Positions 4,911-62,742 of a stretch of 64,000 nt of DNA are shown piece after piece (position 1 is the stretch's first letter; each line of letters starts with the position of its first letter). Made by a program: the position numbers and the translations under genes. The notes under the pieces were generated by a model, which saw only the letters and a list, made by a program, of their open reading frames with translations, was not told the DNA's origin and did not search any database. The stretch is from positions 1 through 64,000 of the IMG/VR virus record IMGVR_UViG_3300031603_000003. The stretch is one strand, 5' to 3'. Source of the DNA: a virus.

Positions 4911-4911
4911 T

Positions 4912-35327: not shown

Positions 35328-36121
35328 TATTGATTCCTATTATTCAACTTATCAAGAGCCACGGTTATAGTTCCGAATATGGTTGCAGCGATGATGCCCA
35401 TGTTAATAAACTTAATCAAATCTGGCATCTTAGCTTTACTCGCGGGCCATGTAACAATTGTCTCGGGTAGCATATGGTTCATACTGTTCTCAAACACAAT
35501 TGATTCTTTTCGAATGCTGTCTCCGGTATCGAATATATCAACTCCGAGCATGCTAATGTCACCACCATCTACAATAAGCCCACTGGCATCAGTACCTAGG
35601 TACAAGCTGTCTTTAGCAAAACTAATTCCAACATCAGGAGTACCTACCCTGTCTCTTATTGTTATGTCATTGGAGCTGGTGTCCATATCGGTTGTAGGAC
35701 GATCCTTTATGAGCCTGGATGGACGTGCTTTGTGATCGAAACTCGCCATGGCTTCGTTCACATAACCATTGTCAATATGGAAACGTATGAAATCTTTATC
35801 CACATATGACTCTTTCTCTTCGCCGTCAGTAGGCACGGCTACTTCTTTACGTCCGCCATCGGTGAGGTACTCTTCTAAGCGTACACGACGATCTACTGGT
35901 GCATCAACATCTACTAAAATCTCCGGTACACCTAACACTACATATTCACGAAACTTATCTACCATGTACCCTGGAGCTTTGATTATATACAGGTCACCGT
36001 CGGATGTCTTGTCCGATTCCCCACGCATCCGTACGCATAACCACAAGATATCTGTGTCTTTACTTACTTGTACGGTACTAGCATTTATAACCCTGGCATT
36101 CTTGTATATGTACTTGCTCAT
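35327..36121 (-). CDS. Putative baseplate spike/central protein
   Basis: ATG 36121 overlaps the hub stop (ATGA); between hub and W-like genes; beta-strand run then hydrophobic C-terminus. Confidence 0.45.
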   Translation of the reverse strand: MSKYIYKNARVINASTVQVSKDTDILWLCVRMRGESDKTSDGDLYIIKAPGYMVDKFREYVVLGVPEILVDVDAPVDRRVRLEEYLTDGGRKEVAVPTDGEEKESYVDKDFIRFHIDNGYVNEAMASFDHKARPSRLIKDRPTTDMDTSSNDITIRDRVGTPDVGISFAKDSLYLGTDASGLIVDGGDISMLGVDIFDTGDSIRKESIVFENSMNHMLPETIVTWPASKAKMPDLIKFINMGIIAATIFGTITVALDKLNNRNQ

Positions 36122-39100
36122 AGTCCTATTTCTCCGTTCATAAGGCCCCATTGTGTAACAATACCATCCCAATAATTAGCATCAATGATATCACTTATAG
36201 CTATGGTGGATGCATTCCTATTGTATTGTATGCCTTCTAACCCTGCACTGTATGCTTTACCATTGTACTGCAGTAACGACATGATGATCGGTGCATTACC
36301 TAGTTGCATGTTAGCGGCATTAATAAACTGTTTCATTTCCATCGTCTTATATTTAATACCACCTGCTGCTATCGTAGTACCTACTATGACGAACATACTG
36401 GTAAATGCTGTTAGGAAAGACACTGCTCGTTTACCTAACTCTGATGCAATACCCTTTTCAACTAACCACTTGAAGCTAGTCTTAACGGCGTACTTAGCAC
36501 CTGCTAATTCTCCACCAACTTTAAGCACAGTCCATGCGGTGCCTACTTTTCTAGTAAGACCGTTGAGTGTTGCGTTCAAGCCCATCAGCTCTGTATCAAT
36601 GGCTGCTGCGGTGTTGCGCATAGAAGTAACTAAGTTGGGCTTGATAGTTGTTATGAATCCACCTGATGAACTCATGGAGTGGATAACTTCTTCCACTTCT
36701 ATTACACCGCTCATTTGTGATACGGCATCCGAGATGTGAATGTAATGCCAAGGGCGTATGGTAGCATCGCCTCTAAGTACCAGACTGCCCTGGTACATAG
36801 GTTTGATTTGATTCATCAATATCTGATCAGCTAGCATTTTAGCCTGAGGTTGCGCGTGTTTCCACCCGGCCGTGGCGTCTACGAAGTCCTCGCCTAATGT
36901 GTTAAGTCCTGTAAAATCATAGAAGATACTTGTATCACAGTTCTTCTGAAAGGATACGTACTCCCGGATATAATTAGCATCCAACTCGTTGGAGATAGAT
37001 GATATTACCTTGTTCTCCTTATCCCATTCGTGTGGAGCTGAAACACCTGAGTCTTTTACGCTAGTTGGGTAATACACTGATACTTTATTTGACAGTAGAT
37101 CCTCTGTGACTGTTATCTCATTAGATATGATGTGCGAGTCACTACTGGCGAAGTGATGTTCCACGATTGGTTGGTAACTTTCGGATCCAGTTTGTCCATC
37201 ATCATCCAGGAGTTGGATCAAATCTTCAAGATGTTGAGATTTAGTACCAGTTACTTGATAATTATTTGATTTAATATTAGCTAGGAACTGTGGCATATCT
37301 GCACGAAGGGCTATTGCCCATTCAGCTTTGACGGCGGTGAATATAACTAGACGGCGTGCGCGGTTACCAGCAAGAAATCTATCTGTAAGTGTAACTGGGC
37401 CGCTAAGTGTTTCATCCAATGCAGAGTAGAACTGAGGTATTATATTACCCTTGATATCTCCCATGTTCCAACATAACAACTGCGTAAATACTGACACTGG
37501 GTGTGTCTTAGAAGTGAATGATTCCTCTTCCATTATCTTGCTTGCGTACTTCAGGGCGAACTGTGCTAAGTGCGGTAACCCTGCATTACTTAATCGTTCA
37601 GCGGCTTGCTTTAATGGTGGACTATAATAATCATTGAAGAGGTTATCGAAGCGGCTCTTTACTGGGTTAAATTTAGAAGCCCACAGTGCGGCGTTACCTA
37701 ACTTACGCGCGGCATCTTGCATATCCTGTTCTAAGTTATTTAAGCCAGTCAATGGGTCAAGCTCCCAATCTTCTTGGTTACTATTAGTTAATTCTTCTTC
37801 CGTTTGTAGTATGCGCTGTCTGATAGCGGTGGCGAACTCATCACCCTTACCTGTAATGTGGTAGGGATCATCACTAGCTTTGTATTGTCCATCACGTGGG
37901 CCAAAGTATAGCGTAGCTCGTGGCGCTGTGCCTCCAAATAAGTAAGCACCTTCATTGTAAGGTAATGGTCTAACGATGTAGTCACCAAGATACAGTGCTT
38001 GTTCCCACAATGCATCCCATGTTGTTTGATTATTAATATGCCAGTAGAACGAGTCTTTATCGTCGAAACGATTAAAGAAGGGAACCATGTTTACAAACCC
38101 ATAGTATTGTGGTCTCTTGTTGTTAACATAAATGTTATCGTACAAGGAGTTGCCAAAGTTTAGCAGCATAGCATATTGGTTCGTACCATCTATGAGTGAA
38201 TCCACGAAGTCTTTCGTACCTGCACCTACATCCCCATCGTATAGTCCTAGTACATCTTGGGAGGCAGCAGAACCACCTACTACTTTCTTCTTCACTTTAT
38301 CTAATAATCCCGAATCAACATCACTTACACCTGTACCAGAGAGCCCTGCTATACGGCCGAGCGTGTACAAGTGTTTAGTTAAATCATTTGAAGCTGCGAT
38401 AAACTCTTCCGACTTTCCGTGGTGAATAGACCAACGTCCAAAGTGTTTTAAGCCAGATGTCTCACTTAAGGTAGTAAGTACGGCTTCACCTATATGTGAC
38501 TCCATACTGCCGGAGGTTATACTACGGCTCATTTCTGATAATAGTTCTACGCCGAAGCTTTGAATCTTTATCTCCAATATAGGACCTGGTATAACTTCAG
38601 TAACGGCACCGTACATTACAACCGGCAGGTTACGGTAGTCAGGCCCATAACCAAGGCGTACCATCACGGTGGTACCGGGTTGGATACGGAAACGTTCAAG
38701 GTTCTTAGGATCATCGGTGTCACGAAATAACTGAGAGATACCTGGTGAAGTTAACTTACCAGTGACATTCGACAGGCGTATTATAGCTGTGGAGCTAGCA
38801 GAGTGCTTAGAGTCGATAACATCGATACTTTGTATACCATCGTACGTGTAGAAGTCATCGAATAAACCCCAGTCCGTGGAGTCTTCTTCGATCAAGAACA
38901 TCTTAAACGCAGGGAATGCTTGAATAAAGTGATTATCCCAGTTATTATGTACCTGACTAGCGAGCTTCTTATCCAAACTTACATTCAGGAGTTCGGCGTC
39001 AATATCTGTGTACCCAAAACCTGCTAGTGCGGTATCTATGCTACGTGTATCACCTGCACGAACTATAACCTCGCCAATATCATTGATCATCTTGCCAAGT

Positions 39101-42100
39101 ACCGTAGTTACGTGGGTTTTATCTTTAAAGCTACGGTTATTCAATATCTTATCTACCGCTGAGCGTACACCCTCGGAGTTTGGATTTCCCATGTTATTTA
39201 TTGCTGGGAATAATACTTTTAGTCCGGGCATATCGTTCCCTAGGGTAACACCTTCTACTAACACCTTACCTCTGTTGAGTACGGTGACATCGTTTTCGAC
39301 TTCACCTTCTACTTGTGTGGCTTGGTTGAGTAATGCTGCTAAGAAGAAATACTGCAATAGATGTACAGCTAGAAAGTATCTTAACATTTGTTCCTTCTGG
39401 AACTGTAGGTATTCACCTGACCTATCGGCTAATAGTTTAGCCATGTTCTCGTCTTCTTTCATTTCCTTGAACATATCTAACGTAGATATGTTGACTAACA
39501 TAGCAGGATTACCAGTGCTGACTCCTTTACGATCAACAGCACCATTGCGTAATGCTTCATAAAATGCACTATCTTCATACTTAGCAAGTCCGGAGGTGGC
39601 TTTACCTAATTCCGCACGATACATATCTTTAACTACTTCAGCAGCACCGGCTAAGCTGTCTAAGTCTTCGTTGTTGATTAGGTTACTCATGTTTAATGCG
39701 AGTTCTAACCGACTGTGATCATTAAATATCTTGGCATCCAGCAATGCAGGGGGTATCCTAGTAGCTGCGAAATACCACGCTGGGTGTAATATCTTATGAA
39801 AGTCCTGCGGCTGTGGGTCTACTTCTTTGCCATCATCCTCGTGTACACTAGCCATTAGGTCTTCTGGGAAGCTGAAGTCTGTGTAATTATTACGTACGAG
39901 CTTACTATTATTCTCTATCCATTTAGCATAGTAATTAGGTAAGTACCCGCGCCACCCGGTGAAGCCTTTCTTAGCTAAGTTCTTCATAGCTCTGTTGAAG
40001 TCAGCGCGTACGAACAATATACGCATGAACTCTCGACTATGTTCTTGCAGAGAGTACGCTGCTGCTATGGAAATACCATGTACATTGGAGTCCGTCAAGG
40101 AGATGGATGTTGGGATATCACTCTTCTGGAACACATTTGGTAGCAGTGTACCGAGGAACAGAGACGCTGCTTGATAGACGTACTGCATGTACTGATACGT
40201 ACTACGTTCTATAAGTTGTGTAAGATTAGTAGCATTAAGCGTATCACTATCTCCTAGGTCACTAACTACAGCTTTACGCCAGGCATATATTTGGTCTCTG
40301 GTGGGGGTAACTATATCATTTAACAACCCGGATGCAAATATAGCATTAGCACTTAAGTCTGGGGATACAGCTAGGAGTGTATCAAAGTCTACTGAGTACG
40401 CGAGGTCTTCCCTGAAGTACTTATTTATCATAAGTTGGAAGTCACTCTTCAGGTAATCGCGATCAACAAATATACCCGGTTTAGCTTTAGGCGCTAGGGT
40501 ACGATTTGGATCTATCTTTAGCTTAGCCATTATGAGCTTCGCGGTATACTTATCGAATACGAGATTCGTTGGGAAGAAGTCCGGAGCTACCTTCTTCACA
40601 TATTTAATCGAGGCACCGCCCACTGTACGTAGCTTCTCTTGCTGGTCGATGGTATTAGGATTGTGAATCATATCCAGTTCTACTGCGTACCATCCAGTTG
40701 TTCCTGGTAGGGTCTTAATCACTACGTTACGTACGGTAAACTCTGTAGCACCGATAGCCTGTAACATTGGGTCATTGAACTCAACACGATCAGTGCCTAG
40801 GCTAATCATCGTAGCGTACGCGGCCTGCATAGCGACACCTGTTTGTGTTAATCTGATATCATTTAATCTTTCGATGAAATTGAAATCATTAGTATGGAGT
40901 GCCATGCTAACATTGAATTGCCCCATACCCATGTGTTGGTATGTTGGGGTGTTGTACTGCGTTATATCTATAGGTACTAACTTGTTAGTGTACGAGACAC
41001 TAACAGATTGAATAACTGTCTTATCTGTAGTTGGAGCCATGTCCGATGTGGAGCTAGCGAATACATAAGTCTTGGATTTAAGTTCGAGTTTCCCTACTTC
41101 ACTATCGGCGGTCTTAGTGAACCTGGTTTCTAGTGAGTTTATAAGGTTACTTAGTATACCTAGGCTACCGTCGCTGGTATCTGTTGGTAATTCAGCACCT
41201 AGCATGATAGACAAATCTTTCATAGTACTTGTCTGCGGGGCGATAGTATGCGCTAGTGGGTTGTTAATCCAAACTGTTTGAAGGTTATCGAACATGTCGG
41301 TGGCTCCCTGTAATTCTCCACGTATGGATGAATCGGGGAACACTTCTTTGGCAGTAGCCTTGTACAGGTTATTAGCTTCGGTTACGAGACGACGAAGCCC
41401 TGTGATAGTGCTAGCGGCGGCTTCGAATATGTCCAGTGGGATATACTGGATGCCGGGCTTGGCCTCTAACCCTTTACGTAAGTCACTGCTGGGAGAGAAT
41501 TGCTGAAGGAGTTTTAAGTTATCCAACATAGCGTCAAGGTCTAAACGTGCGCTCTTGATAAAGTTCAAAACACGCGTGGCTGGGGTATCCAGATTAGTAA
41601 TCTGGTTGTATATCATTGTAACACCGCCAGCGCCGTCTGGATTGTACGTGTCCCACCTTGAGTTCTTGCTGACCATGATAGGGTCTTCAAACTCTAAGAG
41701 TTGTGAACGATAGAATCGTATGAACTCCGGAGATTGACCTAGATCATCAGTAGTGTACAGCTGTACGCCTGCAGGTTCTTTGAGAGTTATAAGTTCTCCA
41801 GTCTGTGTAGCGAAGATGCCAGACTTAGCACTTACAGGACTATACGCACGAGATCTGTGCAACACATCATAAATCTTATTGTTACTGATCATCTCCTGAC
41901 GTCGCGGATTGGAGGTAGCCTCGTACCCTCGCATTTCTCCATAGGGAAAGAAGTTGAAGAAACGGATCGTAAGGTACAGTTGTATTGAGTCCGGGTAACC
42001 GGGCACGGTATGAAACGATATACTATCAATAACTATAGGGATTGGGAAGATAGCAGGTACTACCTCATCTTTGTTAAACTCGGCAGATATAGCTCTATCG

Positions 42101-43371
42101 ATAAGTAGCTTACTGATTATCTTACTCTTGACCTGGGTAAAGGGTGCACGTTTAGCCATGGCTACTAAAGGACGTAGTTGTTCGTTGATAGCAGTCTTGC
42201 CGTTGATGTATAACGTAATGTTTATAGAAGGGCGTTGCGTGCTAACCGGTACAATAGGGTTACCATCCGTACGCATGCTATCAAACCCATAAGTTTGTCC
42301 AGTAGCATTATACCTTATAGCAGTAGGTGGTACGACGAATTCAAGATCACCTATACGGAATACATCTTCATCGTCTGCTATTTGGCTCTTAACTAAGCCG
42401 GGAGACGCGGCGTGCATACGATCTAATTTCTTATTGTACTTGAAGACGGTAGTTTGACCACGTGATACTTGTGGGGATGGCGAATCAGTAAGATCAGTAC
42501 CTTCAGGTTCACGCATTATACGGTTTATCGCTTCTGGGTCGTTAATCTGGTTAAGCGCATTCTTCATGAATGTTCTGCCAGGATTAGGTGAGTCGAAGAA
42601 ACCAACAGATGCGTTTAGAGCGTCGATGCGCTTTATTACATACCGATAAAATTCATTAACATCAATTACCCAGTCTGACTTATCTTCTGGTTGTATGTCG
42701 GTGTACACTGCTTTAGTACCGTCTACGACTTTACCTAAATGCCCATCAATACCGCGTTGTAATGTGTACCCCATGCCGTGATTGTAAGTAGCAACTTCGT
42801 TCAGGTACCACTGTACACCATTACGTCCATCTATAGTAATATTCTTCCACTTATTATATATGTCGGTATGCGCATTGTTAAAGTCTTCGACTTCATATTT
42901 ATGTGGTGTACCTTTTAACTCTTTAAACGTACACAGGACATCGAACAGTTCATCGTCCATTCTGGCTGCTAACTCGTGCAGGATATTTCCCAGTATTATA
43001 CGTCTACTGTCGTACTCACCGTCAATATTCATATTACCGATGACACGGTATTCCTTAGCCCATATAGCAGCCACTGACCACAGGAGCCACATTAGCTCGT
43101 CCATGTCGGCCGGGAGTGCTGTGTTTGGATTCACGGCAATACGCTCATAGGTATCAACTACTAGAGGACCTACTGTTAGGTTAATACCTAAACCTTTTAA
43201 TGCTGTTTGGAAGTTCTCTGTCTCTCTTTGTGCCATAAGTATAGCGTACTGGGGGTTCATCTGGTATCGACCTACTTGTCCGGCTCTATTCTCGTTACTA
43301 GTAAGTCTTTTACCGGTCTCAATAAAGGCCGCGGTCTTAATTACGTCTTCTGGTCTTATGTATATAGGCAT
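36118..43371 (-). CDS. Giant baseplate-hub protein (gp27/VgrG-like core) with N-terminal lysozyme-like motif and tube-like domains
   Basis: 'AAFIETG..GQVGRYQMNP'; hub motifs 'STAIIRLSN..IQPGTTVMVRLGYG..MYGAVTEV' and 'YQGSLVLRGDATIRP..GVIEVEEVIHSMS..GFITTI'; C-terminal hydrophobic helix. Confidence 0.72.
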   Translation of the reverse strand: MPIYIRPEDVIKTAAFIETGKRLTSNENRAGQVGRYQMNPQYAILMAQRETENFQTALKGLGINLTVGPLVVDTYERIAVNPNTALPADMDELMWLLWSVAAIWAKEYRVIGNMNIDGEYDSRRIILGNILHELAARMDDELFDVLCTFKELKGTPHKYEVEDFNNAHTDIYNKWKNITIDGRNGVQWYLNEVATYNHGMGYTLQRGIDGHLGKVVDGTKAVYTDIQPEDKSDWVIDVNEFYRYVIKRIDALNASVGFFDSPNPGRTFMKNALNQINDPEAINRIMREPEGTDLTDSPSPQVSRGQTTVFKYNKKLDRMHAASPGLVKSQIADDEDVFRIGDLEFVVPPTAIRYNATGQTYGFDSMRTDGNPIVPVSTQRPSINITLYINGKTAINEQLRPLVAMAKRAPFTQVKSKIISKLLIDRAISAEFNKDEVVPAIFPIPIVIDSISFHTVPGYPDSIQLYLTIRFFNFFPYGEMRGYEATSNPRRQEMISNNKIYDVLHRSRAYSPVSAKSGIFATQTGELITLKEPAGVQLYTTDDLGQSPEFIRFYRSQLLEFEDPIMVSKNSRWDTYNPDGAGGVTMIYNQITNLDTPATRVLNFIKSARLDLDAMLDNLKLLQQFSPSSDLRKGLEAKPGIQYIPLDIFEAAASTITGLRRLVTEANNLYKATAKEVFPDSSIRGELQGATDMFDNLQTVWINNPLAHTIAPQTSTMKDLSIMLGAELPTDTSDGSLGILSNLINSLETRFTKTADSEVGKLELKSKTYVFASSTSDMAPTTDKTVIQSVSVSYTNKLVPIDITQYNTPTYQHMGMGQFNVSMALHTNDFNFIERLNDIRLTQTGVAMQAAYATMISLGTDRVEFNDPMLQAIGATEFTVRNVVIKTLPGTTGWYAVELDMIHNPNTIDQQEKLRTVGGASIKYVKKVAPDFFPTNLVFDKYTAKLIMAKLKIDPNRTLAPKAKPGIFVDRDYLKSDFQLMINKYFREDLAYSVDFDTLLAVSPDLSANAIFASGLLNDIVTPTRDQIYAWRKAVVSDLGDSDTLNATNLTQLIERSTYQYMQYVYQAASLFLGTLLPNVFQKSDIPTSISLTDSNVHGISIAAAYSLQEHSREFMRILFVRADFNRAMKNLAKKGFTGWRGYLPNYYAKWIENNSKLVRNNYTDFSFPEDLMASVHEDDGKEVDPQPQDFHKILHPAWYFAATRIPPALLDAKIFNDHSRLELALNMSNLINNEDLDSLAGAAEVVKDMYRAELGKATSGLAKYEDSAFYEALRNGAVDRKGVSTGNPAMLVNISTLDMFKEMKEDENMAKLLADRSGEYLQFQKEQMLRYFLAVHLLQYFFLAALLNQATQVEGEVENDVTVLNRGKVLVEGVTLGNDMPGLKVLFPAINNMGNPNSEGVRSAVDKILNNRSFKDKTHVTTVLGKMINDIGEVIVRAGDTRSIDTALAGFGYTDIDAELLNVSLDKKLASQVHNNWDNHFIQAFPAFKMFLIEEDSTDWGLFDDFYTYDGIQSIDVIDSKHSASSTAIIRLSNVTGKLTSPGISQLFRDTDDPKNLERFRIQPGTTVMVRLGYGPDYRNLPVVMYGAVTEVIPGPILEIKIQSFGVELLSEMSRSITSGSMESHIGEAVLTTLSETSGLKHFGRWSIHHGKSEEFIAASNDLTKHLYTLGRIAGLSGTGVSDVDSGLLDKVKKKVVGGSAASQDVLGLYDGDVGAGTKDFVDSLIDGTNQYAMLLNFGNSLYDNIYVNNKRPQYYGFVNMVPFFNRFDDKDSFYWHINNQTTWDALWEQALYLGDYIVRPLPYNEGAYLFGGTAPRATLYFGPRDGQYKASDDPYHITGKGDEFATAIRQRILQTEEELTNSNQEDWELDPLTGLNNLEQDMQDAARKLGNAALWASKFNPVKSRFDNLFNDYYSPPLKQAAERLSNAGLPHLAQFALKYASKIMEEESFTSKTHPVSVFTQLLCWNMGDIKGNIIPQFYSALDETLSGPVTLTDRFLAGNRARRLVIFTAVKAEWAIALRADMPQFLANIKSNNYQVTGTKSQHLEDLIQLLDDDGQTGSESYQPIVEHHFASSDSHIISNEITVTEDLLSNKVSVYYPTSVKDSGVSAPHEWDKENKVISSISNELDANYIREYVSFQKNCDTSIFYDFTGLNTLGEDFVDATAGWKHAQPQAKMLADQILMNQIKPMYQGSLVLRGDATIRPWHYIHISDAVSQMSGVIEVEEVIHSMSSSGGFITTIKPNLVTSMRNTAAAIDTELMGLNATLNGLTRKVGTAWTVLKVGGELAGAKYAVKTSFKWLVEKGIASELGKRAVSFLTAFTSMFVIVGTTIAAGGIKYKTMEMKQFINAANMQLGNAPIIMSLLQYNGKAYSAGLEGIQYNRNASTIAISDIIDANYWDGIVTQWGLMNGEIGL

Positions 43372-43538
43372 TAGCTCATCTGTGCTAGTTTAATTATGTT
43401 AAGTAAATCAACATCGTTGATATATATGTCTGCGTTTACGCCATAACGCTCAAATAACATTAAACGAATACTGTCAATCTGTTCTTGTACGTCAAGCTCA
43501 TATGGCACATCAGTTAACTTTATCATTATCGTAATCAT
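43371..43538 (-). CDS. Small hypothetical protein (55 aa, not in ORF track)
   Basis: MITIMIKLTDVPYELDVQEQIDSIRLMLFERYGVNADIYINDVDLLNIIKLAQMS*; ATGA overlap upstream and TAATG overlap downstream. Confidence 0.75.
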   Translation of the reverse strand: MITIMIKLTDVPYELDVQEQIDSIRLMLFERYGVNADIYINDVDLLNIIKLAQMS

Positions 43539-46500
43539 CTTACTAAAGAGCCAGCTCTTCGGAGGTAATCTGATGAGCTAATAGCTGTGTGTCTGCGCTT
43601 CTTATTATTATATTCGTAATGTGGACGTTCAGGTACACGCATACCTTTAACCAATTGTGGTGCATTGTCTGGTGAGTTCTTCAGTTTGTCCATCAACTTA
43701 TCCTTCAATGTGGCACTCTGCTCTTTTAGGTGCACGCTCTTGCGATTACGGTACCCTTTGGTAACCTCCGACATATTTGGTGTGTCATACTGTTCGCCGC
43801 CTTTTCCGATTGTCTCCCCTACGATCTGGTTCCCAGTGTTGGGATCGAAGAATAAAGCCAGTCCGGCAACAGTTAATACTTTGCGTCCATGGTTACGTAG
43901 GAATGAGTTCTGATCTAAGGCAAAAACTGATTTAGTATATTGCTTAATCTTCTCTGTAAAGATACGTCTAGAGTTGAATTCCTCTGCCAGGGCACCACCA
44001 ACGTGCCCTTCCAATTCTAATAGTGTCTGGAATACGCTAGCACTACTACGTGCAAGACCCATACGCTTGAGCTCTGGCGCTATCATCTGGGACATCTCAG
44101 TACGTAGTACCTGATCTCTGGAGATTTGACTTTCAAGGGAACTTACGGTGATACCTTTAGTTTTATTAGCTAGATCATCCGCCGCCCCTACTGCTTGCAT
44201 TAAATCTCCTAGTTTAGCGGCATATGTATCGTCTCCTCTGCTGTTAGCATCTGTTTGTAATTGGACAAGTGTACTTCCAAGCTTATGTACAGCTATACTA
44301 GCAGTATGCCAGGACTCTAATAGTTTACCGGCTCGTAGTTGTGCTTTCTCCAGGGTAGCATCATTCATGGATGCTAGATCTTGCCTATTAGCGTGGTACG
44401 TTAATGTTAGTTTACGATCTTCACCCATACGTTTAGTAAAGTAATCTATGGATGCGTCTAGAGATGTTCTATCTTCTCCCCAGGTAACTGTATTAAGATG
44501 TCCCATCATCTTGATTAGAGATGTAACAGGGTTGCTACTAGTCTTTTCTATACCCGTACGTTGCCCTAGTTCAGCTACAAATAGGTTCATTACGTGCATG
44601 TTGCTATAACCACCCATCAAATCACTAGGAGAATGCAAGTAATCGAGAGCTTCAAGTACTGAGTTAGATGTTATACCTTTGGCGTGTAATCCTACCTCTT
44701 CCATCATTCTATTAAACATACCGCTAGCAGCTTCACGCTGTGGGCCTTCATTTAATAAGCTACCAAGTTGACGCATGACGGAGTTCGGGCCGTACGCGGC
44801 GGCATATAGTTTCTTGTGGAACCCACCAATAACTTGCGTGAATGACTTCTGTGTCATGTACGCCAGCTGCGTGTCAACCCTGCTATCCATCTCTAGTTGT
44901 TTCTTGAAGAAACTAGCAGACAGCGCTTCGGATGGATCGACAAACAAGTGTGGATTAGTACCCATAGCGGCTTTATCGAGCTTGTAGAGCTGTCTGGTTC
45001 CTCCGGGAGAACTTTCAGTGGCGAAGTTTGCTTCATCGAATATATCGGCTAGGTATGGTGTACCGCCATCTCGTTCAATCTGTATCTTCTGCCAGTCGAT
45101 CAACATATTGGTATGGTTTTCGTGACTCTGTTGGTACATTGTACGCTTGATGCCAATCTTACCTTCGCGGTCTCTCCATCCACCTATGTTGATGATAGCG
45201 GCAGTATCACCATCCTGATCAGCTCGTAGGAACTTCATCGCTAGTGGGTCTAGGAACACAGATGAGCGGGTGGAGAATCCTGCACCACCGTCATACACGG
45301 CACCGACTTGTTCTGGAAATATGTAAGTACCTCCGGCCAGCACCATTCCTTGGATGTGGGATGGGTTACGATCACGTAATTGTTTACCACTGATCTCAGC
45401 AGTAAAGAATTGGTAAGCTTCCTGATAACTAAGATCTCCAGTCTTAACTGCTTCTTTTAGCTGTCTTGCGCCTGCTTTTCCGAATACAAAACTCTCGTTT
45501 ACACCAAGTCCACGTGCACGTACTACGCCAGTTACTGGGTCTATCGGGCTACCGCCTCCAGTTATTCTGTTTAGTATAGTAGATAACTGAAGCTCGCTTT
45601 GTTTGCTAGCGACAAACTCTTGACCGAGACCCTTCTTTAACCAACCGGGAAGCTTAATCTTGGAGTCTTCTAGTACGCCTAGTGATAACTGTTCTTGCAT
45701 AGATATGAGTGTTGGGAGGATACCCATGCTATTCATGATCTTACCGTGTGACATGCTTACGGTACTAGCTGTAGATCTGAATTTAGATTGCTCGAATAAG
45801 TGACCTAGTATGCCTAAAGATGCACGATCTACTATCTCGGAGGTGAGTTCACGGCGTCTGTTGTACTCACGCATGAAGTCTTCTTCAGCTGTTTCTTTAA
45901 TACCAACATGGAAGGCAGTCTGAAAGGCACTAATAGCTTCTGCACCTTCGAGGAACTTAGAACTAGCACCTGCCATAATAGCTAACCCATCTTTGTCGTG
46001 TGGCCTGAGTATACCTGTTAAGGCTGGGAAGATGACTTCATCTATAATGTTGGGCCCGCGCTTGTCGGCGTTGCTTTCTATAAATTCACGGAATGCTTTG
46101 AATTTAGCCTTGTCCATACTACCTGCGGACTGTAACTCTCCATGTATAGCGAGATCTTTGACTGCACCCATGTGTTTTATGGAGAGTGTCATGTTCTCAG
46201 TGCCGATACGCTTCTTGATAGCCTTACGGAACGCATCACGCTCTTCATCGTTGAACTTAGACATGTCGATCTTATCCAACATTTCATCTACACTGTCTAG
46301 TTTGAAACCTCTGTACGCTGGATCATTCTTCTCTAGTGCTCCGAACAGATTATCGCTGTCGAAGAACGCGGCACGTACTTGACTGATACGTGATTCAGCC
46401 ATACCAGCAAGTTGTATATATTCTCCGGTTTGTGTATCCTGAAACTCTTGCCCAAACTGTGCCAGCATGCCGGCTGCTTTCATCTCCGGCGTAGCCCCGG

Positions 46501-49500
46501 CCCATTCCTGGGTAGTGAAATCAATATCAAATATAGATGCTTTACGTAGCTTTTCGAGTGACTCCTCTAGAGCCTTGGATCCAACTTTAGTAATCTTCTT
46601 CTTTAGTACCCTGTTACTCTCACCCTGCATGTACGCGGAGATGAGTTGTACGGTCTTGGCTGCGTCGCGGACTGGTTGTTTACCTTCCCTGTTGACATAA
46701 TTAAAGCCTAACTTAGGAGCATAGAACCCTGCCAAGTACCCGAAGTCTTCCATTGATCTTATATCATTGTGGCGGTTGCCGATACTGTCCATTACGATGG
46801 TGTTGAACATAGCCAGAGCTTTAGGTTTAAGACTAGGTAAGCCGTTGGCTTGTTCTGGGCGCATGTACATCATCCAGAAATCAGTGGCATCACTTGTTAC
46901 GGACATCGACGTTAGAATACGTAGTGCTTGTGAGGTCATGCTCAGATGACCGTACTGTACGGGAACTATATCAAATAGTGCAGCTGATGTATCATCACCT
47001 ACCTGGCTTTTCCAACGCTTGAAGTGTCTAGCTTTTAGCTTATCGCCGCTGTTAGTAGCTTGCTCTAGTAATGTACCTAATGCTTGTTTCTGTTTAGTAA
47101 GACCAGCCGCCCATTGCGATACTACCTTGGCATCATTATTCCACAGCTTTTTGGCGGACTTGTTAAACTTATCCTTTACGTAACCCCAGGTTACACCGGC
47201 TTCCTCGAGCATGTTCTCAAGGACATGTAGGTCCACCCGCTCAAGTACAGTTGTCTCAATCTTAGCTGGGATCTCTGGTACATATATTATATGATCAACC
47301 AGGTTACCGGCAGCATTAGTGGTTTTAATCTTGCGTTTTACATACTTTACCTGTGATGCTACATCAGGTCCTAGTAAGGTGGAGAATGCTTTCTCAAGTG
47401 TACGTTTAGTGTGGTCTGGTTCAGAACCGTCAAGTACTAACTTGAGTTGTATACGATTAATCTGGTGTATGATATTGGAAGCTATCTCATTACGATTACC
47501 ACCAAGCTTAATGCCAGATGCAGCTTGGGTGTACAGTGGATCTATATTTAGTCCACGACCAAAGCCCATGAGTGCGTTAATAGAAAACTTAGCTGTCTTA
47601 TCACCGTAGAATGCCTTGGTACCTACACCTCCGGGGACGTACTGCGCTAGGTTAACCGTCAGGTACCCAGTATCTGCATCATAATGAAGGGACTGTGGTA
47701 TACCTGGAATTTGACCATGATACCTAGTGTCCGCGGCTATGCTTCCTATAACAGCACCATCAGCCTTAGCGCCGAGACTGGAGCGCGTCATTCCGCCGAA
47801 TACTCTATCCTTATTGCGTACTGCTATGTCACCTCCTGGAGCCTTACCAGTTTTGATCCAGTTATTAACTAAATCCCAACCCTCTTGTTGACTATTTAGT
47901 CCAAGAGTAAAACTTCCATCAAGATGTAAGTGTAATCGTTCTTGTAGTAAGCCATCAGCTATGACCCTGTTAATGGCATTACCTATTGCTTTGTGCTTAC
48001 CGATGCCTGACAGTACTTTAACTAACTCTGCTTCAGGTAAAGCACCTGCAGAGACTGCTAGGCCGGCAGGGGATGCGGAAGATAAGTTAAGTTTAAACTG
48101 AGCCTTAACTTGCTTGATACCTTTGTACGAACTAAGGTTTTGACGTAATTCGTCCGTCACTACGAGCCCTGATTCAAATACAGGTGCGAAGCTCTCAGGC
48201 ATGAGCGTCATGACTACCATTTGGTGTGTGTGAGCGAGCTTGTTATCACTATTAATGTTATCAAGTACTCCGTACAGTGAAGAGGCTACACCTTTAGCCA
48301 TTAAATTGTAGTTAAGCTTTTCACTAGTACCGAGGCGGTCACTAATGAACTTATTAAACTTATCAGTATCATCAAATGATCCACTATACTGCGCAGATAC
48401 ATATTGTCTGATAGTAGCACTAGCCTCTGTCTCTAGTACACCACCATGTCCATAGATACCAGTCATTGGTCCATTGGGGTTCAAGACACGGGCGGAGAGT
48501 ACCTGGTACTTTTCACGAGAGAAGTTGTTCAGCAGACCGAAGGGCATTACACCCTCCAGTGAAAGTAATGTACCGCGAAGGTCGGAGGCTGAATGTCTAG
48601 GTTGGGACATCAACGATAGACCTAGGCTATGTGCCGGCGCGCCGTTGACTCCCCACTTGTCATAGATACCGAAAAGTTCTTGATTCTGTGCAGCAATATC
48701 TAGACTACGATGCCACTCGGCGCTTTGTCCACCCTTCTGCAGGTAGTTGGCTGCTACTTCAGTGTACTCCCGTATTCTACGTTTCTCCCTGGAGCCCATA
48801 TCATTGTACAGTCTTTTAATACCGAAGTAATTCAGTACAGATACCATGGAGTCAAATTGTGCTAAGTGACCAGTAGCCGTACCATCAAATTTGAGATGTA
48901 AGTCGTTGGCTTGAATAAGTCCTAGTATACGATTAGCATCCTTTATACGTCCCTGGTCAAACCCGCGCAATACACCTGCTTTATTCTGGTGTGTTGATGG
49001 GTTAGCTATATTCTGCGCGTACTGCAGTATATCTGAGAACTCATCCGTGGACACATTGTAGATATCTTTGAAGATGTCAGTCTGTGACTCAGCTTTATTC
49101 TGTCCCATCTTTAGTACATGATAGGCACTCTGTATATTAAAATGAGAAAAGGTTTCACTTCGTGGATCAGTATTAAATAACTTACTAAGTATATTCTTGA
49201 ACTTGGTCTTAAGCTTTCTAGTTAACCCTAACTCCGAGTTCAAGGCTCTTTCCATCAACGGGATATCAGCTTGTGTATGTGCTTGTCCTATGAAGATTAC
49301 AGGGAATAGGTCATCCCCTCTATCAGCAGACATGGCGTTTATACCGGTAGACATGTTATCCAACATCTGTATTAACATCTTCGCCGGTGTACTGGTGGTC
49401 TCTTCAAGTGCTTTAATTATCTTATTAGCTTCGCCGCGGTCGCCTACTTGTTGTAACACCCAGTCCTTGACACGTTGGGTTAACACTTCATCCATACCAA

Positions 49501-51793
49501 AAGCGTTAGGTTTAGCTAATAGGGCCGTCTTGCCCTTTGGCATGAACGTGACTCTGTCCTCAAAGAGGTTGATAGTTGTTTGCCCACCCTGCCATATCTC
49601 AGAACTAGGATGTCGAGCTACCTGCTGCAGTCCAGCGGACTGAGAGGCCATGGAGTGAGAGAACTCCATATCAAATGCAATTCCTATTCCACCTGTATCT
49701 AGTAATTCTAAACCACGTTTACCTTCTAACACTTTTACATAGTCGTTGTATGAGGCTGCGTTTCTACGAAAGTCCATCTCTTGCGACTGTACGGTCAAAG
49801 CTGTACGGAAATCAGCTCCAGTAAGTTCAGCCGGTGACAGCTTAGTTGAGTCCTTACGTGCTAATCTGTTCCATAGTCCCTCCGTACGGTCAGGGTTAGT
49901 AAACGTTTCAATGAAATCATTTAATGCTTTTTCCGCTGTACGCTCGATAGAATCCATACGGCCGGCTGTATAATCCACGAGACCATCTAGATCTGGATTG
50001 AACCCGCTAGCTCTATTCAATACTGTGCGCTGGTACAGTGTTGAAACCTGTGCTTGTCCGCCAAGAGTAGGAGTCACGACGCCACGTACGTTTATAGGTA
50101 CTAGTACACTAGCGTTTAACCCACCACTAATGTAGCTTAGTTTTAAGTGTTGTTGTGTTATTCCTGCGTTATCAAACGTATAACCTTCTACTTTGAATTG
50201 CAGTTTCTCTAGCAAATCAGTTAATACTTTTAGCTTCTTCTGATCTGCGCCGGCACCAAGTACGGCTCTATTCTTGGCGTCAGCCTTAGCTCTTAGTACA
50301 ACCTGCTTTATATTATCTAGTTGTTTACCAAGACGTTCAGCTACGACACCTGGATTATGAAACTTATCATATACAGCACCTTGCCCTAAGACCCTGTACA
50401 TATCTTTGTGCAGTCTCGTGCGCAAACGTTCTAGATGATTGGGGTTTCCATTAGCTAAGTCTAACCAGTTACGTATATCTCCAGATGATCCTAGAGTGAA
50501 CGCCTGCGGTTTACCGAACTTTACCTGTGGATTCACTACCTTGGTGAAGGTATCGACTAGCCTTTCTTTGTTAGCTTGGTTAAGTTTCTGCGCTGTCTTC
50601 TTGAGAACCTTCACAACCTGTGAAGACGGAGCCTGCGATGCTTGCATCTCGGAGAATCTAGTCTCCAGTGCGACCGCGTTTTGCCGGATATCATCCATCG
50701 TAACGAACCCAGCTTCTAATGTAGCGATAGGTTGTCGACCATACACTTCGGAGTACGCGTTAGCGAAAGCGATTAGCTTACTATACTGTGCCATTTCTCC
50801 GGGAGTTTCGGCAGCCTTGTATAGATCTACAGCTAGTAGTTCAGCTACGCCACGTACGGATGATTGTGTAGTTTTGTTAGTGGACATGCCATCTACGAGT
50901 ATCTTCCGTGTTTGCATGTACTGTTCTTTACGAAATGCACTAAGCTTATCGGCTGCCTCAGACTCTACGGTCTCAATTACCTGTCCAGGTAATTTACCAG
51001 CATCGATATGTTTCTTAAGTTCCATGACCATGATGGCATTTTGTAATGCCTCATCACTGGCGGTTCTGAAATTGTATACTACGTTACCGTAGCTCTTATC
51101 CTTTAGTACTAAAGCTAAGCCTGCCTTTAACCTAGCGTTATATCTCTTATTTTGTGCAGTATTTGGGGTAAACAACTCATCTTGTATAGCCAAGGTGGTA
51201 TGTTCGTCCATGACGTGCTCGCCGCCTAGAACTTGTGTTGCTAGATTATTGGGTAAATCACCAATAATACCCTGTAATTTCATCAACTTAGCAGAGCTTT
51301 TAAACAGTATTTCATTAGCATCATTATTAACTAACGGATGCGCGCTGTTCACTCCGTAAACATTAGCCCAATAGCTGGAGATTGGATTAGCTAGTGTGTG
51401 TGCATCGCGTTTACTGATCTGTTCTACGAACTCACCAGCTGCGTTGCGTTTCTTACCGAACTTTCGTATATTCTTTTCTTGTTCTCGTGCTCGTTTATAC
51501 CCAGCAATCATCATTGCCGTGTTGGATCCATCTGCCTTAACATACGCGGCGTTAGTCTGGATACCAGCGTTTGCGAAGATTTGATCGGCGGGACGATCTC
51601 CTGCTTTTAATACTTCCGGTACATCTATGATACGACTTAATATATCGTGTACGGCTGACTTAAATGATCCAGGTTCCTGGGCCGCCCACGCTTGGTGAAT
51701 AGCTCTAGAGCCTTTGACTATACCAAGAATAGCTGGGAGCGCTAACGCCGCCGACAGTAGTACATCTTTAGTCTCTTTTTGCTTATTAGCCAC
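43535..51793 (-). CDS. Giant virion protein: DEDDh exonuclease domain plus putative single-chain two-barrel RNA polymerase
   Basis: Exo motifs 'IAFDMEF' (D708), 'AHTQADIP' (D843), 'HLAQFD' (H976/D981); RNAP-like 'FESGLVVTDEL' (aa 1206), 'GTKAFYGDKTAK' (aa 1393), 'RNP' (R2142), 'RADQDGD' (D2192); AAGGAG RBS; hydrophobic helices at both termini. Confidence 0.72.
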   Translation of the reverse strand: MANKQKETKDVLLSAALALPAILGIVKGSRAIHQAWAAQEPGSFKSAVHDILSRIIDVPEVLKAGDRPADQIFANAGIQTNAAYVKADGSNTAMMIAGYKRAREQEKNIRKFGKKRNAAGEFVEQISKRDAHTLANPISSYWANVYGVNSAHPLVNNDANEILFKSSAKLMKLQGIIGDLPNNLATQVLGGEHVMDEHTTLAIQDELFTPNTAQNKRYNARLKAGLALVLKDKSYGNVVYNFRTASDEALQNAIMVMELKKHIDAGKLPGQVIETVESEAADKLSAFRKEQYMQTRKILVDGMSTNKTTQSSVRGVAELLAVDLYKAAETPGEMAQYSKLIAFANAYSEVYGRQPIATLEAGFVTMDDIRQNAVALETRFSEMQASQAPSSQVVKVLKKTAQKLNQANKERLVDTFTKVVNPQVKFGKPQAFTLGSSGDIRNWLDLANGNPNHLERLRTRLHKDMYRVLGQGAVYDKFHNPGVVAERLGKQLDNIKQVVLRAKADAKNRAVLGAGADQKKLKVLTDLLEKLQFKVEGYTFDNAGITQQHLKLSYISGGLNASVLVPINVRGVVTPTLGGQAQVSTLYQRTVLNRASGFNPDLDGLVDYTAGRMDSIERTAEKALNDFIETFTNPDRTEGLWNRLARKDSTKLSPAELTGADFRTALTVQSQEMDFRRNAASYNDYVKVLEGKRGLELLDTGGIGIAFDMEFSHSMASQSAGLQQVARHPSSEIWQGGQTTINLFEDRVTFMPKGKTALLAKPNAFGMDEVLTQRVKDWVLQQVGDRGEANKIIKALEETTSTPAKMLIQMLDNMSTGINAMSADRGDDLFPVIFIGQAHTQADIPLMERALNSELGLTRKLKTKFKNILSKLFNTDPRSETFSHFNIQSAYHVLKMGQNKAESQTDIFKDIYNVSTDEFSDILQYAQNIANPSTHQNKAGVLRGFDQGRIKDANRILGLIQANDLHLKFDGTATGHLAQFDSMVSVLNYFGIKRLYNDMGSREKRRIREYTEVAANYLQKGGQSAEWHRSLDIAAQNQELFGIYDKWGVNGAPAHSLGLSLMSQPRHSASDLRGTLLSLEGVMPFGLLNNFSREKYQVLSARVLNPNGPMTGIYGHGGVLETEASATIRQYVSAQYSGSFDDTDKFNKFISDRLGTSEKLNYNLMAKGVASSLYGVLDNINSDNKLAHTHQMVVMTLMPESFAPVFESGLVVTDELRQNLSSYKGIKQVKAQFKLNLSSASPAGLAVSAGALPEAELVKVLSGIGKHKAIGNAINRVIADGLLQERLHLHLDGSFTLGLNSQQEGWDLVNNWIKTGKAPGGDIAVRNKDRVFGGMTRSSLGAKADGAVIGSIAADTRYHGQIPGIPQSLHYDADTGYLTVNLAQYVPGGVGTKAFYGDKTAKFSINALMGFGRGLNIDPLYTQAASGIKLGGNRNEIASNIIHQINRIQLKLVLDGSEPDHTKRTLEKAFSTLLGPDVASQVKYVKRKIKTTNAAGNLVDHIIYVPEIPAKIETTVLERVDLHVLENMLEEAGVTWGYVKDKFNKSAKKLWNNDAKVVSQWAAGLTKQKQALGTLLEQATNSGDKLKARHFKRWKSQVGDDTSAALFDIVPVQYGHLSMTSQALRILTSMSVTSDATDFWMMYMRPEQANGLPSLKPKALAMFNTIVMDSIGNRHNDIRSMEDFGYLAGFYAPKLGFNYVNREGKQPVRDAAKTVQLISAYMQGESNRVLKKKITKVGSKALEESLEKLRKASIFDIDFTTQEWAGATPEMKAAGMLAQFGQEFQDTQTGEYIQLAGMAESRISQVRAAFFDSDNLFGALEKNDPAYRGFKLDSVDEMLDKIDMSKFNDEERDAFRKAIKKRIGTENMTLSIKHMGAVKDLAIHGELQSAGSMDKAKFKAFREFIESNADKRGPNIIDEVIFPALTGILRPHDKDGLAIMAGASSKFLEGAEAISAFQTAFHVGIKETAEEDFMREYNRRRELTSEIVDRASLGILGHLFEQSKFRSTASTVSMSHGKIMNSMGILPTLISMQEQLSLGVLEDSKIKLPGWLKKGLGQEFVASKQSELQLSTILNRITGGGSPIDPVTGVVRARGLGVNESFVFGKAGARQLKEAVKTGDLSYQEAYQFFTAEISGKQLRDRNPSHIQGMVLAGGTYIFPEQVGAVYDGGAGFSTRSSVFLDPLAMKFLRADQDGDTAAIINIGGWRDREGKIGIKRTMYQQSHENHTNMLIDWQKIQIERDGGTPYLADIFDEANFATESSPGGTRQLYKLDKAAMGTNPHLFVDPSEALSASFFKKQLEMDSRVDTQLAYMTQKSFTQVIGGFHKKLYAAAYGPNSVMRQLGSLLNEGPQREAASGMFNRMMEEVGLHAKGITSNSVLEALDYLHSPSDLMGGYSNMHVMNLFVAELGQRTGIEKTSSNPVTSLIKMMGHLNTVTWGEDRTSLDASIDYFTKRMGEDRKLTLTYHANRQDLASMNDATLEKAQLRAGKLLESWHTASIAVHKLGSTLVQLQTDANSRGDDTYAAKLGDLMQAVGAADDLANKTKGITVSSLESQISRDQVLRTEMSQMIAPELKRMGLARSSASVFQTLLELEGHVGGALAEEFNSRRIFTEKIKQYTKSVFALDQNSFLRNHGRKVLTVAGLALFFDPNTGNQIVGETIGKGGEQYDTPNMSEVTKGYRNRKSVHLKEQSATLKDKLMDKLKNSPDNAPQLVKGMRVPERPHYEYNNKKRRHTAISSSDYLRRAGSLVR

Positions 51794-54700
51794 GTGTTCT
51801 CCTTGATATCTCGCGAGCAGAGTCTCTCTGGATTTCTACTTCTAGCTTGATACCTTCAGCCCCTGCTGATGGTGTGTCCGTAACTTCGACGGTAAATGTC
51901 ATGCCAGACATAGTTAATTGCTGAGTGATATATCCTTGTATCTCTGGTATATCTATATCTACTGAGCTTTGCCCTGAAGAAGGTGCATGTATATCTAATG
52001 CCCTGGACTTTAACAGACTTTGTTCAGCGGCTTTAACCTGGTCACGCCAACCTAACCCAAAGTCATGAGAATCAAGGCCGGCTGATTCCACCGTCTTCAT
52101 TTCAAAGAAGTCCATGTTAGCGGACGGTTGCATTATTGGATCAGTAGCTAATGGGCGTTGATGTGTTTCGAAGTATTGAGTAGCATCGAAGGCACTGTCT
52201 CTGCTCTCGTTCCAGGTCTTGGATAGTACGCGCGCCATGCTGGCATCAACCTTGCGTAAGATCTGTTGTCGTCTTTCCGGATCACGTTCGTTCATGAACG
52301 CTGTAAAGAATGGTCTATCCCAGTACGGGATGGCGGAGAAGGTAACTCCTAGATCTAATTGTGCACGATATGATGTGTCACCGGCGGTATCCTGACCACC
52401 CCACGGTGAGTGGTGCCCGTAGTTAGGTGTGCCCTGCATATTGTACGCTTGATACGCGTAGCGGTTAGTTTGATTCATCTCTTCCGGGTTCTGGGCGAAC
52501 GCACCAAAGCCAACAGCAGTCTGGCTCATTTGTCTCAAGTACCTACTATCTTTCGTGAGGTCATACATCCGTGAAGCTTTGTCGTACTTAACGACATCGA
52601 AGTATTCAGAGTATTCACTGAGTTCTTCGAAGTGGTCAGGTTTGTATTCTGTACCGGTGATAGTTCTAGCGAGTCCGTGCGCTGTACCGTATGCAGCACC
52701 TACGGCTGCTCCAACAGTGGCACCGAATGGTCCACCGACTAGTGCTCCACCAGCTCCCCAACTCAGAGCTCCCTGTACGGGCCCGGTAGCTGATAGCGCT
52801 CCGCGTGTCCATGGCTTGATGAATGATTCAACTGGGTTTCCCCATCCTTGAAAGCCTTTACCTAATACCACTTCGTTATCGTACATTTCCTCTGGTGAAT
52901 ACACACCGAAAAACTTCGTATGTAACGGAGTACGATAACTCATGAGCTTTTCCCAAACAGCACCAACGGCCCGTTCGGTTAATGAATATTCAGCTGCAGC
53001 TCTGATGTTCTCATTCAAGTTGTACGAGGTGTATTCAGCACTGGGTGCAATCCAATCTGTACCTTGGAATCGTTTGTCATACATTTCATACTTGTTAACT
53101 ACACCTTTAGCATGTCTCTTTAACATGTCTAATCTATTGACCTGGCTATCAGTGAGCATACCGCGTTCTGCTTGTTCTTCGACGATTTGTCCTATTTCAC
53201 GAAACTCTTTACTGAATGGGGATGTATTAAGTAATACTTCGAAGCGATCAGTGTAACTATAACCACCGGCAGCTTGACCGTATCCTTCTTCTAGATAACC
53301 GGCCGCCATACCGCGCGCTTGGTTAAGCGTGTTGATAGAGTCGTCCCACATGTCCGCGTTGTATCGGGTGAAAAACGACTTAACCTGTGAAGGATCATCT
53401 CGATTGACGTAGATTATCTTACCTGACTGTGCACCCATGATGTGCATATAAGCATTCAACTGCACAACATTTGCTCGTTTTGGTGCACGGAGTTTACTAA
53501 AACCTGCGGCGCTGATAGATTTGATTTCACCAGGTGAGCCGACTTTGTCCACTGTAGGAAAAACTAAATCAACATAGGATGATAATCTGTTCTCTGGGTC
53601 AGTGATTAATGCTTCTGTCTTGATTGCGCGGTTCTCTGCTTTCAATGCGGTCTGCACCATACGATGAATAGCAGTACCACCCTCCATAATCTCAATGGCA
53701 TCCTCATCGAATTGGTTTAATCCTAAGAACCCCATAGCCTGATCAAATGCGCTGGAACCTAATCTCGAGATACCGGACGGGAAATCAATGGTTGTTTCGT
53801 GTGTAGCTTCGTAGCCAGATCCTGGAAGAATATATTCCCCTAAAGGACGTTTGGTATTGTGTGTACAAACACAGCCCACACAGAAACTATCATCGGTATC
53901 TACTTCGAATCCGTATACGAGACCATCGTAACGTTCTCTCTTGATCCATTCGATACCTAGACTCATATATTGTTTGTTACCGATTACGCGCAATATAGTG
54001 GAAGGTAATTCATTACCTGTAATCTGTCCTCTATCGTATACACGTTCGCCTGTTAATATATGGTGTAACGTAACTGCTGATTTACCATATACTTGCACAG
54101 TGTTGCCTTCGAGAACTCCATGAATATGAAGTTGTGCTAAGTGACTCCAGATCTGATATGCTAAGTTTCGTGTAGGCATTTCAAACGTAAGTTCCATGCC
54201 TCTCATGTTAGTAGTCAGAAACTGTCTAGTGAACTGCAGTAATGCAGGAGTACCCACAGCGTACAATTCATCTGGTATACCGTACGTCTGCATCTGTTCT
54301 AGTAACTCAGCTACAGCGCCGGAGCGGAAGCTATTATCTCTGTTTACTGATACTCCAAAGTATGTATCTACTAGGTGTACAATCTCTCCATGATCTATCG
54401 GGCAGTTGATTAACTTTATATGTTCATCTTCATACTTACCGTACGCCAGTATGATACCTAGTGTAAACGCATACCCACCTGTGACTACACCAGAACGTCT
54501 AGTAGACATTTCTGTGTGCACAGCTGGCGCTGTTGTACGTAAGTCACGCAGTGGGTATCTTACTCTATGTTTCTTGGTAAGATTCTCCGCTTTAACATAA
54601 TGTCCATTGTCACTTACTAGGAATGGATGTTCACTAGTAACACGGATTAATGTATCAGTATGTTTTAACTTAATAACATATACGCGTTCCTTGACTGGTC

Positions 54701-62119: not shown

Positions 62120-62674
62120 TTATTCTTCGTCTGGTTCTTCATTATTGTAGGGAGCCAACAAATCTTCAATATAGTCGGTAGTTGCTTTTCTAATATCTTT
62201 CATATCTCTTGCTAGATATTGTACTACCGTCTCTGTGAATCCTTCATCGATTCCTAAGGTAACTCCTGGATCTATGAATGTTACATCCGTTAACTCGAAG
62301 TGTAGTAGATTACCAGTTGGTCCTACTATGATACCAATTACGTTGCATGGAGGTAATTGATCAAGTTTTGTATAGTTATGAGCCTTACCGGTAGTTGCAT
62401 CTATATCACTGAAAAGATCGTGTATTAAACCTTGATCTACGCTATTAATGAATATCATACTGCCCGCTATAGTACGAGGGCCGTACGTAAAGCCAGTGGC
62501 ATTAACTTGTCCAAGTGATCGTACTGGAAACTTCTCCCTGTGTACTGAAATTGAAAGTGTTGCGAGATTCTCTTGCCGTACACCTATGTCTGACCACTCG
62601 AACATAACTTGAACATCAACGCCAGAGTATGCCATTAATGTGTTTTCACCTGTGGTGTATTCGAAGTCAGCCAT
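62120..62674 (-). CDS. Tail-tube-fold protein 2
   Basis: 'YSGVDV..LSISVHREKFPVRSLG..GPRTIAGSMIF..DQLPP'. Confidence 0.8.
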   Translation of the reverse strand: MADFEYTTGENTLMAYSGVDVQVMFEWSDIGVRQENLATLSISVHREKFPVRSLGQVNATGFTYGPRTIAGSMIFINSVDQGLIHDLFSDIDATTGKAHNYTKLDQLPPCNVIGIIVGPTGNLLHFELTDVTFIDPGVTLGIDEGFTETVVQYLARDMKDIRKATTDYIEDLLAPYNNEEPDEE

Positions 62675-62693
62675 GGTAGTCCTAAGCGGACGT

Positions 62694-62716: not shown

Positions 62717-62742
62717 TTAGTCCTTTATCGAGGGAGCAGCGA

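Follow-up and report, generated by a model that had tools for sequence, protein, structure and literature searches.

IMG/VR virus record IMGVR_UViG_3300031603_000003 raises the question of whether a phage with a contractile tail may carry its own RNA polymerase (RNAP) into the host as a separate giant protein encoded beside the tape measure. The window, i.e., the whole stretch of DNA analyzed here, comprises the first 64 kb of this 79.5-kb record, for which CheckV estimated a completeness of ~42%. The gene in question is a giant open reading frame (ORF) of the tail module, in which an earlier note had recognized a candidate single-chain virion RNAP on the basis of short sequence motifs:

43535..51793, minus strand: target ORF (P0001), 2752 amino acids (aa), GTG start

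The GTG start is credible because the N terminus of the deduced protein lines up with the MADKxKD start of its homologues. The reading favored here, which we hold to be fairly probable, is that the target is a very divergent single-chain two-barrel polymerase, most likely a DNA-dependent RNAP, that is carried in the tail and ejected for early transcription. With moderate confidence, the protein probably represents a new and rare family of single-chain virion RNAPs in a contractile-tail phage.

The beta-prime-like barrel region

The family of the target is rare, because all of its members sit in singleton clusters. A HMMER search of 1.84 billion representative proteins yielded five relatives (P0003 to P0007), i.e., four proteins of 2612-2793 aa and a 647-aa fragment, and scans of viral, metagenome, and genome contigs added one further locus only (P0008), which is located on a 198-kb contig rated complete by CheckV and referred to below as the 198-kb relative. 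Searches of GenBank phages by tblastn, with the whole protein as well as with the catalytic region, gave no match even at E = 10, and the E. coli chromosome contained no candidates when it was searched with the family profile of the catalytic region. Word-indexed protein searches also returned no match, which is uninformative, since the known relatives were missed too.

Four short motifs had been put forward as traces of the two barrels of an RNAP. All of them are present in the 2752-aa ORF and in the proposed order, three at exactly the positions originally given and FESGLVVTDEL with a start that had been misplaced by 3 nucleotides (nt) (48149 versus 48146):

48146..48178, minus strand: FESGLVVTDEL (aa 1206-1216), candidate for the beta motif FEDSILVSE
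47588-47623, minus strand: GTKAFYGDKTAK (aa 1391-1402)
45362..45370, minus strand: RNP of the motif RDRNP (aa 2140-2144), with R2142-N-P aligned with N-R-A-P-T-L of beta-prime and R2142 invariant
45206..45220, minus strand: DQDGD (aa 2192-2196), putative Mg-binding Asp triad, aligned with NADFDGD

As bare motifs they are weak evidence, because the composition of the target predicts 0.043 DxDGD motifs and 0.53 DxDxD motifs of any kind per protein of such length. DQDGD is the only DxDxD in the target, and the three other motifs are too loose to carry meaning alone. The motif evidence gains weight because the residues in question are invariant in relatives that are only 19-31% identical to the target, namely, R2142, P2160, D2182, D2192, D2194, and D2196. 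Conservation of DQDGD among homologues had been set beforehand as a test on which the proposal could fail; all three Asp residues turned out to be invariant. Six of the seven proteins share the motif DQDGD, and the most distant protein has DFDRD instead.

Profile comparisons with hhalign delimited the following region:

45080..45580, minus strand: beta-prime-like catalytic barrel region (double-psi beta-barrel A, DPBB-A), aa ~2072-2238

The beta-prime DPBB reference profile was our own build and comprised E. coli, 16 proteobacteria, and 13 phage-collection sequences, two of which are near-cellular (71-73% identical to E. coli), the other 11 being divergent phage homologues; a contig scan for beta-prime sequences gave only proteobacteria at at least 85% identity, i.e., a set of low diversity. 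The family profile of aa 2070-2260 matched this reference over 145 columns with a score of 38.2 (P = 4.7e-5; probability, 68%), and it matched the 11 divergent phage beta-prime sequences alone with a score of 42.6 (P = 9.4e-6; probability, 83%). In the aligned register, GG.V..AKG is paired with SGRSVIT, NR.P with NRAPTL, and LDPL-x6-ADQDGD with LHPL-x6-ADFDGD. Since about a dozen comparisons were run, the corrected P value is near 1e-4 to 6e-4.

The match stands well above its controls. Forty column shuffles gave a mean score of 12.9 (standard deviation, 2.0; maximum, 18.3), the reversed profile scored 16.9, and the beta profile, included as a negative, scored 12.3. Three family windows placed over the region gave 25-30, compared with 9-17 and a single value of 22.7 for 26 windows outside it (190 aa; step, 95 aa). 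The register was kept when the profile was truncated before the Asp motif (score, 22.4), and the whole 2672-column family profile selected the same region (score, 41.1). As a yardstick, the family profile of the crAss virion RNAPs (vRNAPs), which are proven by experiment, reached 29.3 (P = 0.0033) with the same beta-prime profile, which is below the value of the target. Comparisons by hhalign with the single sequences rpoC, rpoB, and gp66 of the crAss-like phage phi14:2 were not significant, the top match to rpoC nevertheless being the catalytic motif, and those with low-diversity full-length proteobacterial beta and beta-prime profiles were not significant either; the Pfam model RNA_pol_Rpb1_2 did not match the target. 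Overall, the beta-prime-type half of the original proposal held up, as RxP ... LDPL-x6-ADQDGD is kept in all homologues, and homology of aa ~2072-2238 to the catalytic barrel of RNAP beta-prime is, at the profile level, supported although not proven.

The evidence for a catalytic barrel is silent on template and product. It therefore also suits a two-barrel polymerase with another job, e.g., a primase-like enzyme, an RNA-dependent RNA polymerase (RdRP), or a PolD-like DNA polymerase with a DEDDh-like proofreader, which would be neither ejected nor required for early transcription. The position that corresponds to N458 of beta-prime, which bears on sugar selectivity, is occupied by R, H, or G and not N, an invariant D-E-D-H-D set is located upstream of the barrel, and the nearest named cluster in the ESM Atlas is the RdRP family PF05183, a weak lead that, with a score of 0.87, does not reach the relevant level. 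However, the target is part of a tail module that is conserved and is encoded on the strand of the structural genes, with the replication genes located on the other strand at 1-7500; the exonuclease reading is itself unconfirmed, and the known giant single-chain two-barrel phage enzymes are transcriptases. We regard a polymerase with such a different function as rather unlikely.

The upstream set of acidic residues and His defines the following region:

48839..49696, minus strand: DEDDh-like motif region (aa 700-985), with D708, E710, D843, H976, and D981 invariant

Its identity as a DEDDh exonuclease was not confirmed by any of three approaches. The Pfam RNase_T model PF00929 matched neither the target gene nor its counterpart in the 198-kb relative, the hhalign comparison with DnaQ lacked significance and gave a shifted register (GHxAxFD was paired with Exo II, not Exo III), and the ESM Atlas returned no exonuclease family for aa 700-985, the low-scoring matches being the "large polyvalent protein" domains LPD39 and LPD1. 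A separate 213-aa ORF of the 198-kb relative (G001:105018-105428, minus strand) matches RNase_T weakly (E = 0.004), without reaching the family cut-off.

Candidate second barrel, termini, and structure prediction

A two-barrel enzyme should possess a second, beta-like barrel in which two conserved basic residues point to the active site, as well as a bridge helix and a trigger loop past DPBB-A. Candidates for such elements are located on either side of the catalytic region:

47444..47716, minus strand: candidate second barrel region (DPBB-B), aa 1360-1450, with K1393, K1402, G1427, K1429, G1431, R1434, and E1436 invariant
44789..44869, minus strand: conserved helix-like segment YLTQKSFTGxIGGYQK, aa 2309-2335, ~120 aa past the Asp triad, with Q2315 and G2323 invariant

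The invariance of the residues listed for aa 1360-1450 holds for the six full-length proteins, i.e., the target and five relatives. K1393 and K1402 are nine residues apart and are followed by a conserved DPL...KLGG.RNE, an arrangement that recalls GDK...K...NPL...SRMN of beta. Of the motifs that had been assigned to beta, the two Lys residues proved to be invariant, whereas conservation of FESG is partial (E-[SG]-G is kept in four of the five homologues), and this motif lacks profile similarity to beta. If K1393 and K1402 mark a second barrel, the two barrels would be ~790 residues apart, which would resemble a fused beta/beta-prime more than it would gp66 and QDE-1 with their 140-residue connector. 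A bridge helix may correspond to the conserved segment at aa 2309-2335.

Both termini of the protein had been described as hydrophobic helices. The N-terminal one is clear, whereas the C-terminal one amounts to an 11-residue patch outside the top four hydrophobic segments:

51707..51772, minus strand: N-terminal hydrophobic helix LLSAALALPAILGIV, aa 8-29, from Kyte-Doolittle analysis
43538..43876, minus strand: strongly conserved C-terminal segment FFDPNTG...GETxGxGGExYDxP, from the homologue alignment

The N-terminal helix is the sole hydrophobic segment of transmembrane length, and its residues S14, P20, G24, and K27 are invariant. The conserved C-terminal segment is a possible assembly or tail-association signal; it is absent from the two neighboring giant proteins, and a terminal signal common to all three giant proteins was not found.

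Several results weigh against a virion RNAP. The hhalign probability of the catalytic barrel is 68-83% and not >95%, with about a dozen comparisons run, the N458 equivalent is replaced as described above, and a HMMER search of all ORFs of the record with beta-prime profiles ranked the target motif first with an E value of only 0.15. On the beta side, aa 1360-1450 scored 12.2 by hhalign, which equals the shuffles, and no family window resembled the beta profiles (scores of 11-18, the same as for shuffles). The beta-like half is thus not statistically supported, and the second barrel is one that we infer; the null result does not refute it, because gp66 too showed one barrel by sequence. The target and gp66 with its orthologues revealed no similarity by hhalign (P = 0.38-0.58), the target and all family members remained without a match in Pfam and PHROGs, and neither the target nor the family profile matched PDB sequences at E = 10. 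No double-psi barrel is visible in the structural models because AlphaFold failed twice: with a 7-sequence alignment, the model of aa 1151-2349 had a mean predicted local distance difference test (pLDDT) score of 49 and that of aa 2060-2460 a mean score of 39, both candidate barrel cores were left unmodelled at <40 with no barrel fold seen, and a Foldseek search of the PDB with the first low-confidence model gave noise only. Finally, virion packaging, ejection, and RNA synthesis are pure predictions.

Some of these results are also in accordance with an alternative in which the target serves the tail in a structural role or in ejection and lacks polymerase activity. Such an internal tail, pore-forming, or tape-measure-accessory protein, whose DxDGD would be a relic or another metal site, suits the position among tail genes, the N-terminal hydrophobic helix, the long helical content of the models, the lack of a recognized family match, and the failure to detect a second barrel; moreover, a chance DxDGD is expected in ~4% of proteins of such length. 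A relic would, however, be expected to lose residues such as the Asp triad, the Arg of RxP, and both Lys residues, which are invariant at 19-31% identity, and the similarity to beta-prime, which spans 145 columns, persists when the Asp motif is removed. A tail protein devoid of catalytic activity is in our view unlikely.

Gene order and proposed tail delivery

The second component of the favored reading, i.e., delivery through the tail, depends on the genes that surround the target:

51786..59201, minus strand: upstream tape-measure-like giant gene (2471 aa) that encodes an intein plus a Cas4/exonuclease-like nuclease domain
36118..43371, minus strand: downstream giant gene (2417 aa), C-terminal part muralytic or tail-protein-like (phrog_20474 at 8.9e-50)
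63482-64000 and beyond: tail-sheath gene, upstream of the giant genes
33767-34897: baseplate-wedge gene, downstream of the giant genes

The minus strand of the window thus harbors three consecutive giant ORFs, and the target in their middle overlaps the upstream gene by 8 nt and is separated from the downstream gene by a gap of 163 nt. The gene order of the window is sheath, tube-like genes, tape-measure-like giant, target, muralytic giant, and baseplate wedge. In the upstream protein, which has a weak tape-measure match, an intein (PF14890; E = 4.5e-5; aa 1495-1782; Pfam) is directly followed by the Cas4/exonuclease-like nuclease domain (phrog_1706; 1.8e-13; aa 1822-1962). A placement of the target between tape measure and hub, as proposed in the earlier note, is reasonable, with neither neighbor being firmly assigned.

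The complete 198-kb relative displays the same module, i.e., small ORFs, the tape-measure-like giant, the counterpart of the target, the muralytic giant (split in two), and the baseplate genes. The description of the target as a separate gene between a tape-measure-like giant and a muralytic hub-like giant is supported, and its order is kept in this relative. Within the module, the target has diverged most, with 25% identity to its counterpart, compared with 32-46% for the other module genes and 43% for the upstream tape-measure-like protein. Tail delivery is suggested by this position between tape-measure-like and muralytic hub-like genes, whose order is kept in the 198-kb relative, together with the N-terminal hydrophobic helix.

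Gene position alone is no proof of a location in the particle. An active RNAP might instead be packaged in the head, like the vRNAPs of jumbo phages, or be made after infection, and the closest catalytic barrels by hhalign belong to beta-prime homologues of phages, with many jumbo phages among them. The 8-nt overlap with the tape-measure-like gene speaks against this alternative, as does the position of the target, which is kept in a relative with 32-46% identity in the remaining module genes, and we judge an RNAP that is not delivered by the tail to be very unlikely.

Returning to a tail-delivered RNAP, the mechanism proposed here is based on the analogy with gp66 and with gp96 of Thermus phage P23-45. 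R2142 (the RxP Arg), the LDPL strand, and D2192, D2194, and D2196 would be part of the catalytic barrel, in which the Asp triad would bind the catalytic Mg ions, while a second barrel ~790 residues upstream would supply the invariant K1393 and K1402, and the conserved helix ~120 residues downstream of the Asp triad would act as a bridge helix. The protein would be made from a translationally coupled separate cistron, built into the tail or the tail lumen, and freed together with the tape-measure protein upon contraction at infection. The ejected protein would then transcribe the first phage genes on the entering DNA, so that the host polymerase would not be needed. The 198-kb relative has no recognizable T7-type polymerase or beta subunit, which fits a phage that carries its own unrecognized polymerase but is no proof of it.

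A scan for promoters and terminators revealed no signal above chance. Matches to sigma-70-like promoters between 43000 and 52500 of the window were fewer than expected (6 versus 17.5 +/- 3.8 in shuffles), a deficit that may reflect avoidance of host-type promoters within the giant gene.

Further observations concern the surroundings of the three giant genes. The downstream 2417-aa gene (36118-43371) corresponds to two adjacent genes of 1105 and 1365 aa in the 198-kb relative (L007:18170-25595). Beside the sheath gene, two adjacent small ORFs of 184 and 209 aa (62120-63372, minus strand) both match phrog_9206, which is labelled "major head protein"; their position points to the duplication of a tube-like or decoration gene more than to a capsid protein. 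The plus strand carries a replication or recombination block at 6-7487 with a RecD2-like helicase, a clamp-loader-like AAA+ protein, an AAA_5 protein, a VWA protein, and a weak PD-(D/E)XK nuclease, and an HNH homing-endonuclease gene (11969-12478, minus strand) is located where the plus-strand replication genes switch to the minus-strand structural genes.

Comparison with known phage-delivered polymerases

RNAPs that are delivered by phages allow the virus program to start without the host enzyme, and they are central to ideas on the evolution of RNAPs. Three kinds serve for comparison here, i.e., the multisubunit enzyme of jumbo phages, gp66 of the crAss-like phages, and the tape-measure fusion of P23-45, and both ejected and tape-measure-fused two-barrel RNAPs have been described (10.1101/2020.03.07.982082; 10.1101/2022.12.01.518664).

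The crAss-like phi14:2 gp66 (2180 aa; PDB 6VR4) resembles the target in being a giant single chain encoded among structural genes, in which RxP is followed by DxDxD. Its barrels are known from the crystal structure, one barrel is visible by sequence, and the protein is ejected and transcribes early genes. Differences concern the Asp motif (DFDID in gp66 versus DQDGD), the distance between the barrels (~140 residues versus an inferred ~790), and the virion, which is that of a podovirus in contrast to a contractile tail. Since tests for homology were negative, the target is placed outside the crAss gp66 family.

In the case of gp96 of Thermus phage P23-45, a two-barrel RNAP is likewise tied to the tape-measure gene and is presumed to exit through the tail. 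It is set apart by its arrangement: the RNAP of P23-45 is the tape measure's N-terminal domain, while the target is a separate cistron downstream of it in a phage with a sheath gene. The target hence does not belong with tape-measure fusions of the P23-45 type, since its cistron stands apart and has its own conserved N terminus, and the same arrangement is found in the 198-kb relative. QDE-1 and the eukaryotic RdRPs (PF05183), as well as YonO of SPbeta, are single-chain two-barrel polymerases with DxDGD-type motifs, the likeness to YonO being one of description only.

The catalytic barrel itself is most readily compared with the beta-prime DPBB of multisubunit RNAPs, especially that of the homologues from AR9 and from Erwinia, Staphylococcus, Yersinia, and Rhizobium phages, in which the G..V..G strand, NR.P, and L[HD]PL-x6-AD.DGD align in register and with the same spacing. 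These enzymes consist of split subunits, in contrast to the single 2752-aa chain encoded in a tail module, and neither a beta-like region nor further beta-prime regions are detectable in the target. On sequence grounds, the target is rated as a distant member of the two-barrel RNAP superfamily at its catalytic barrel.

A more far-reaching proposal, which we put forward only tentatively and consider doubtful, is that the locus represents a third, independent route by which a transcriptase is delivered through the tail, namely, by an enzyme of a so far unrecognized family that is encoded by a separate cistron next to the tape measure, built into the contractile tail, and co-injected with a muralytic hub and a tape measure bearing a nuclease. 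No known single-chain phage RNAP would have a barrel as close to that of phage and cellular beta-prime; the enzyme would perhaps be joined to a 3'-5' exonuclease, and it might link the multisubunit enzymes of jumbo phages with the single-chain enzymes.

Standard annotation with Pfam, PHROGs, PDB, and BLAST is blind to the family of the target. If the favored reading is true, the locus would provide a tractable case of a 300-kDa enzyme that has to cross a tail tube, and it would bring in a family that is unusually near to beta-prime in its catalytic barrel. Beside the multisubunit enzyme of jumbo phages, crAss gp66, and the P23-45 fusion, it would constitute a fourth kind of phage-delivered RNAP, encoded next to the tape measure of a contractile-tail phage, and would thus widen the range of phages that inject a transcriptase.

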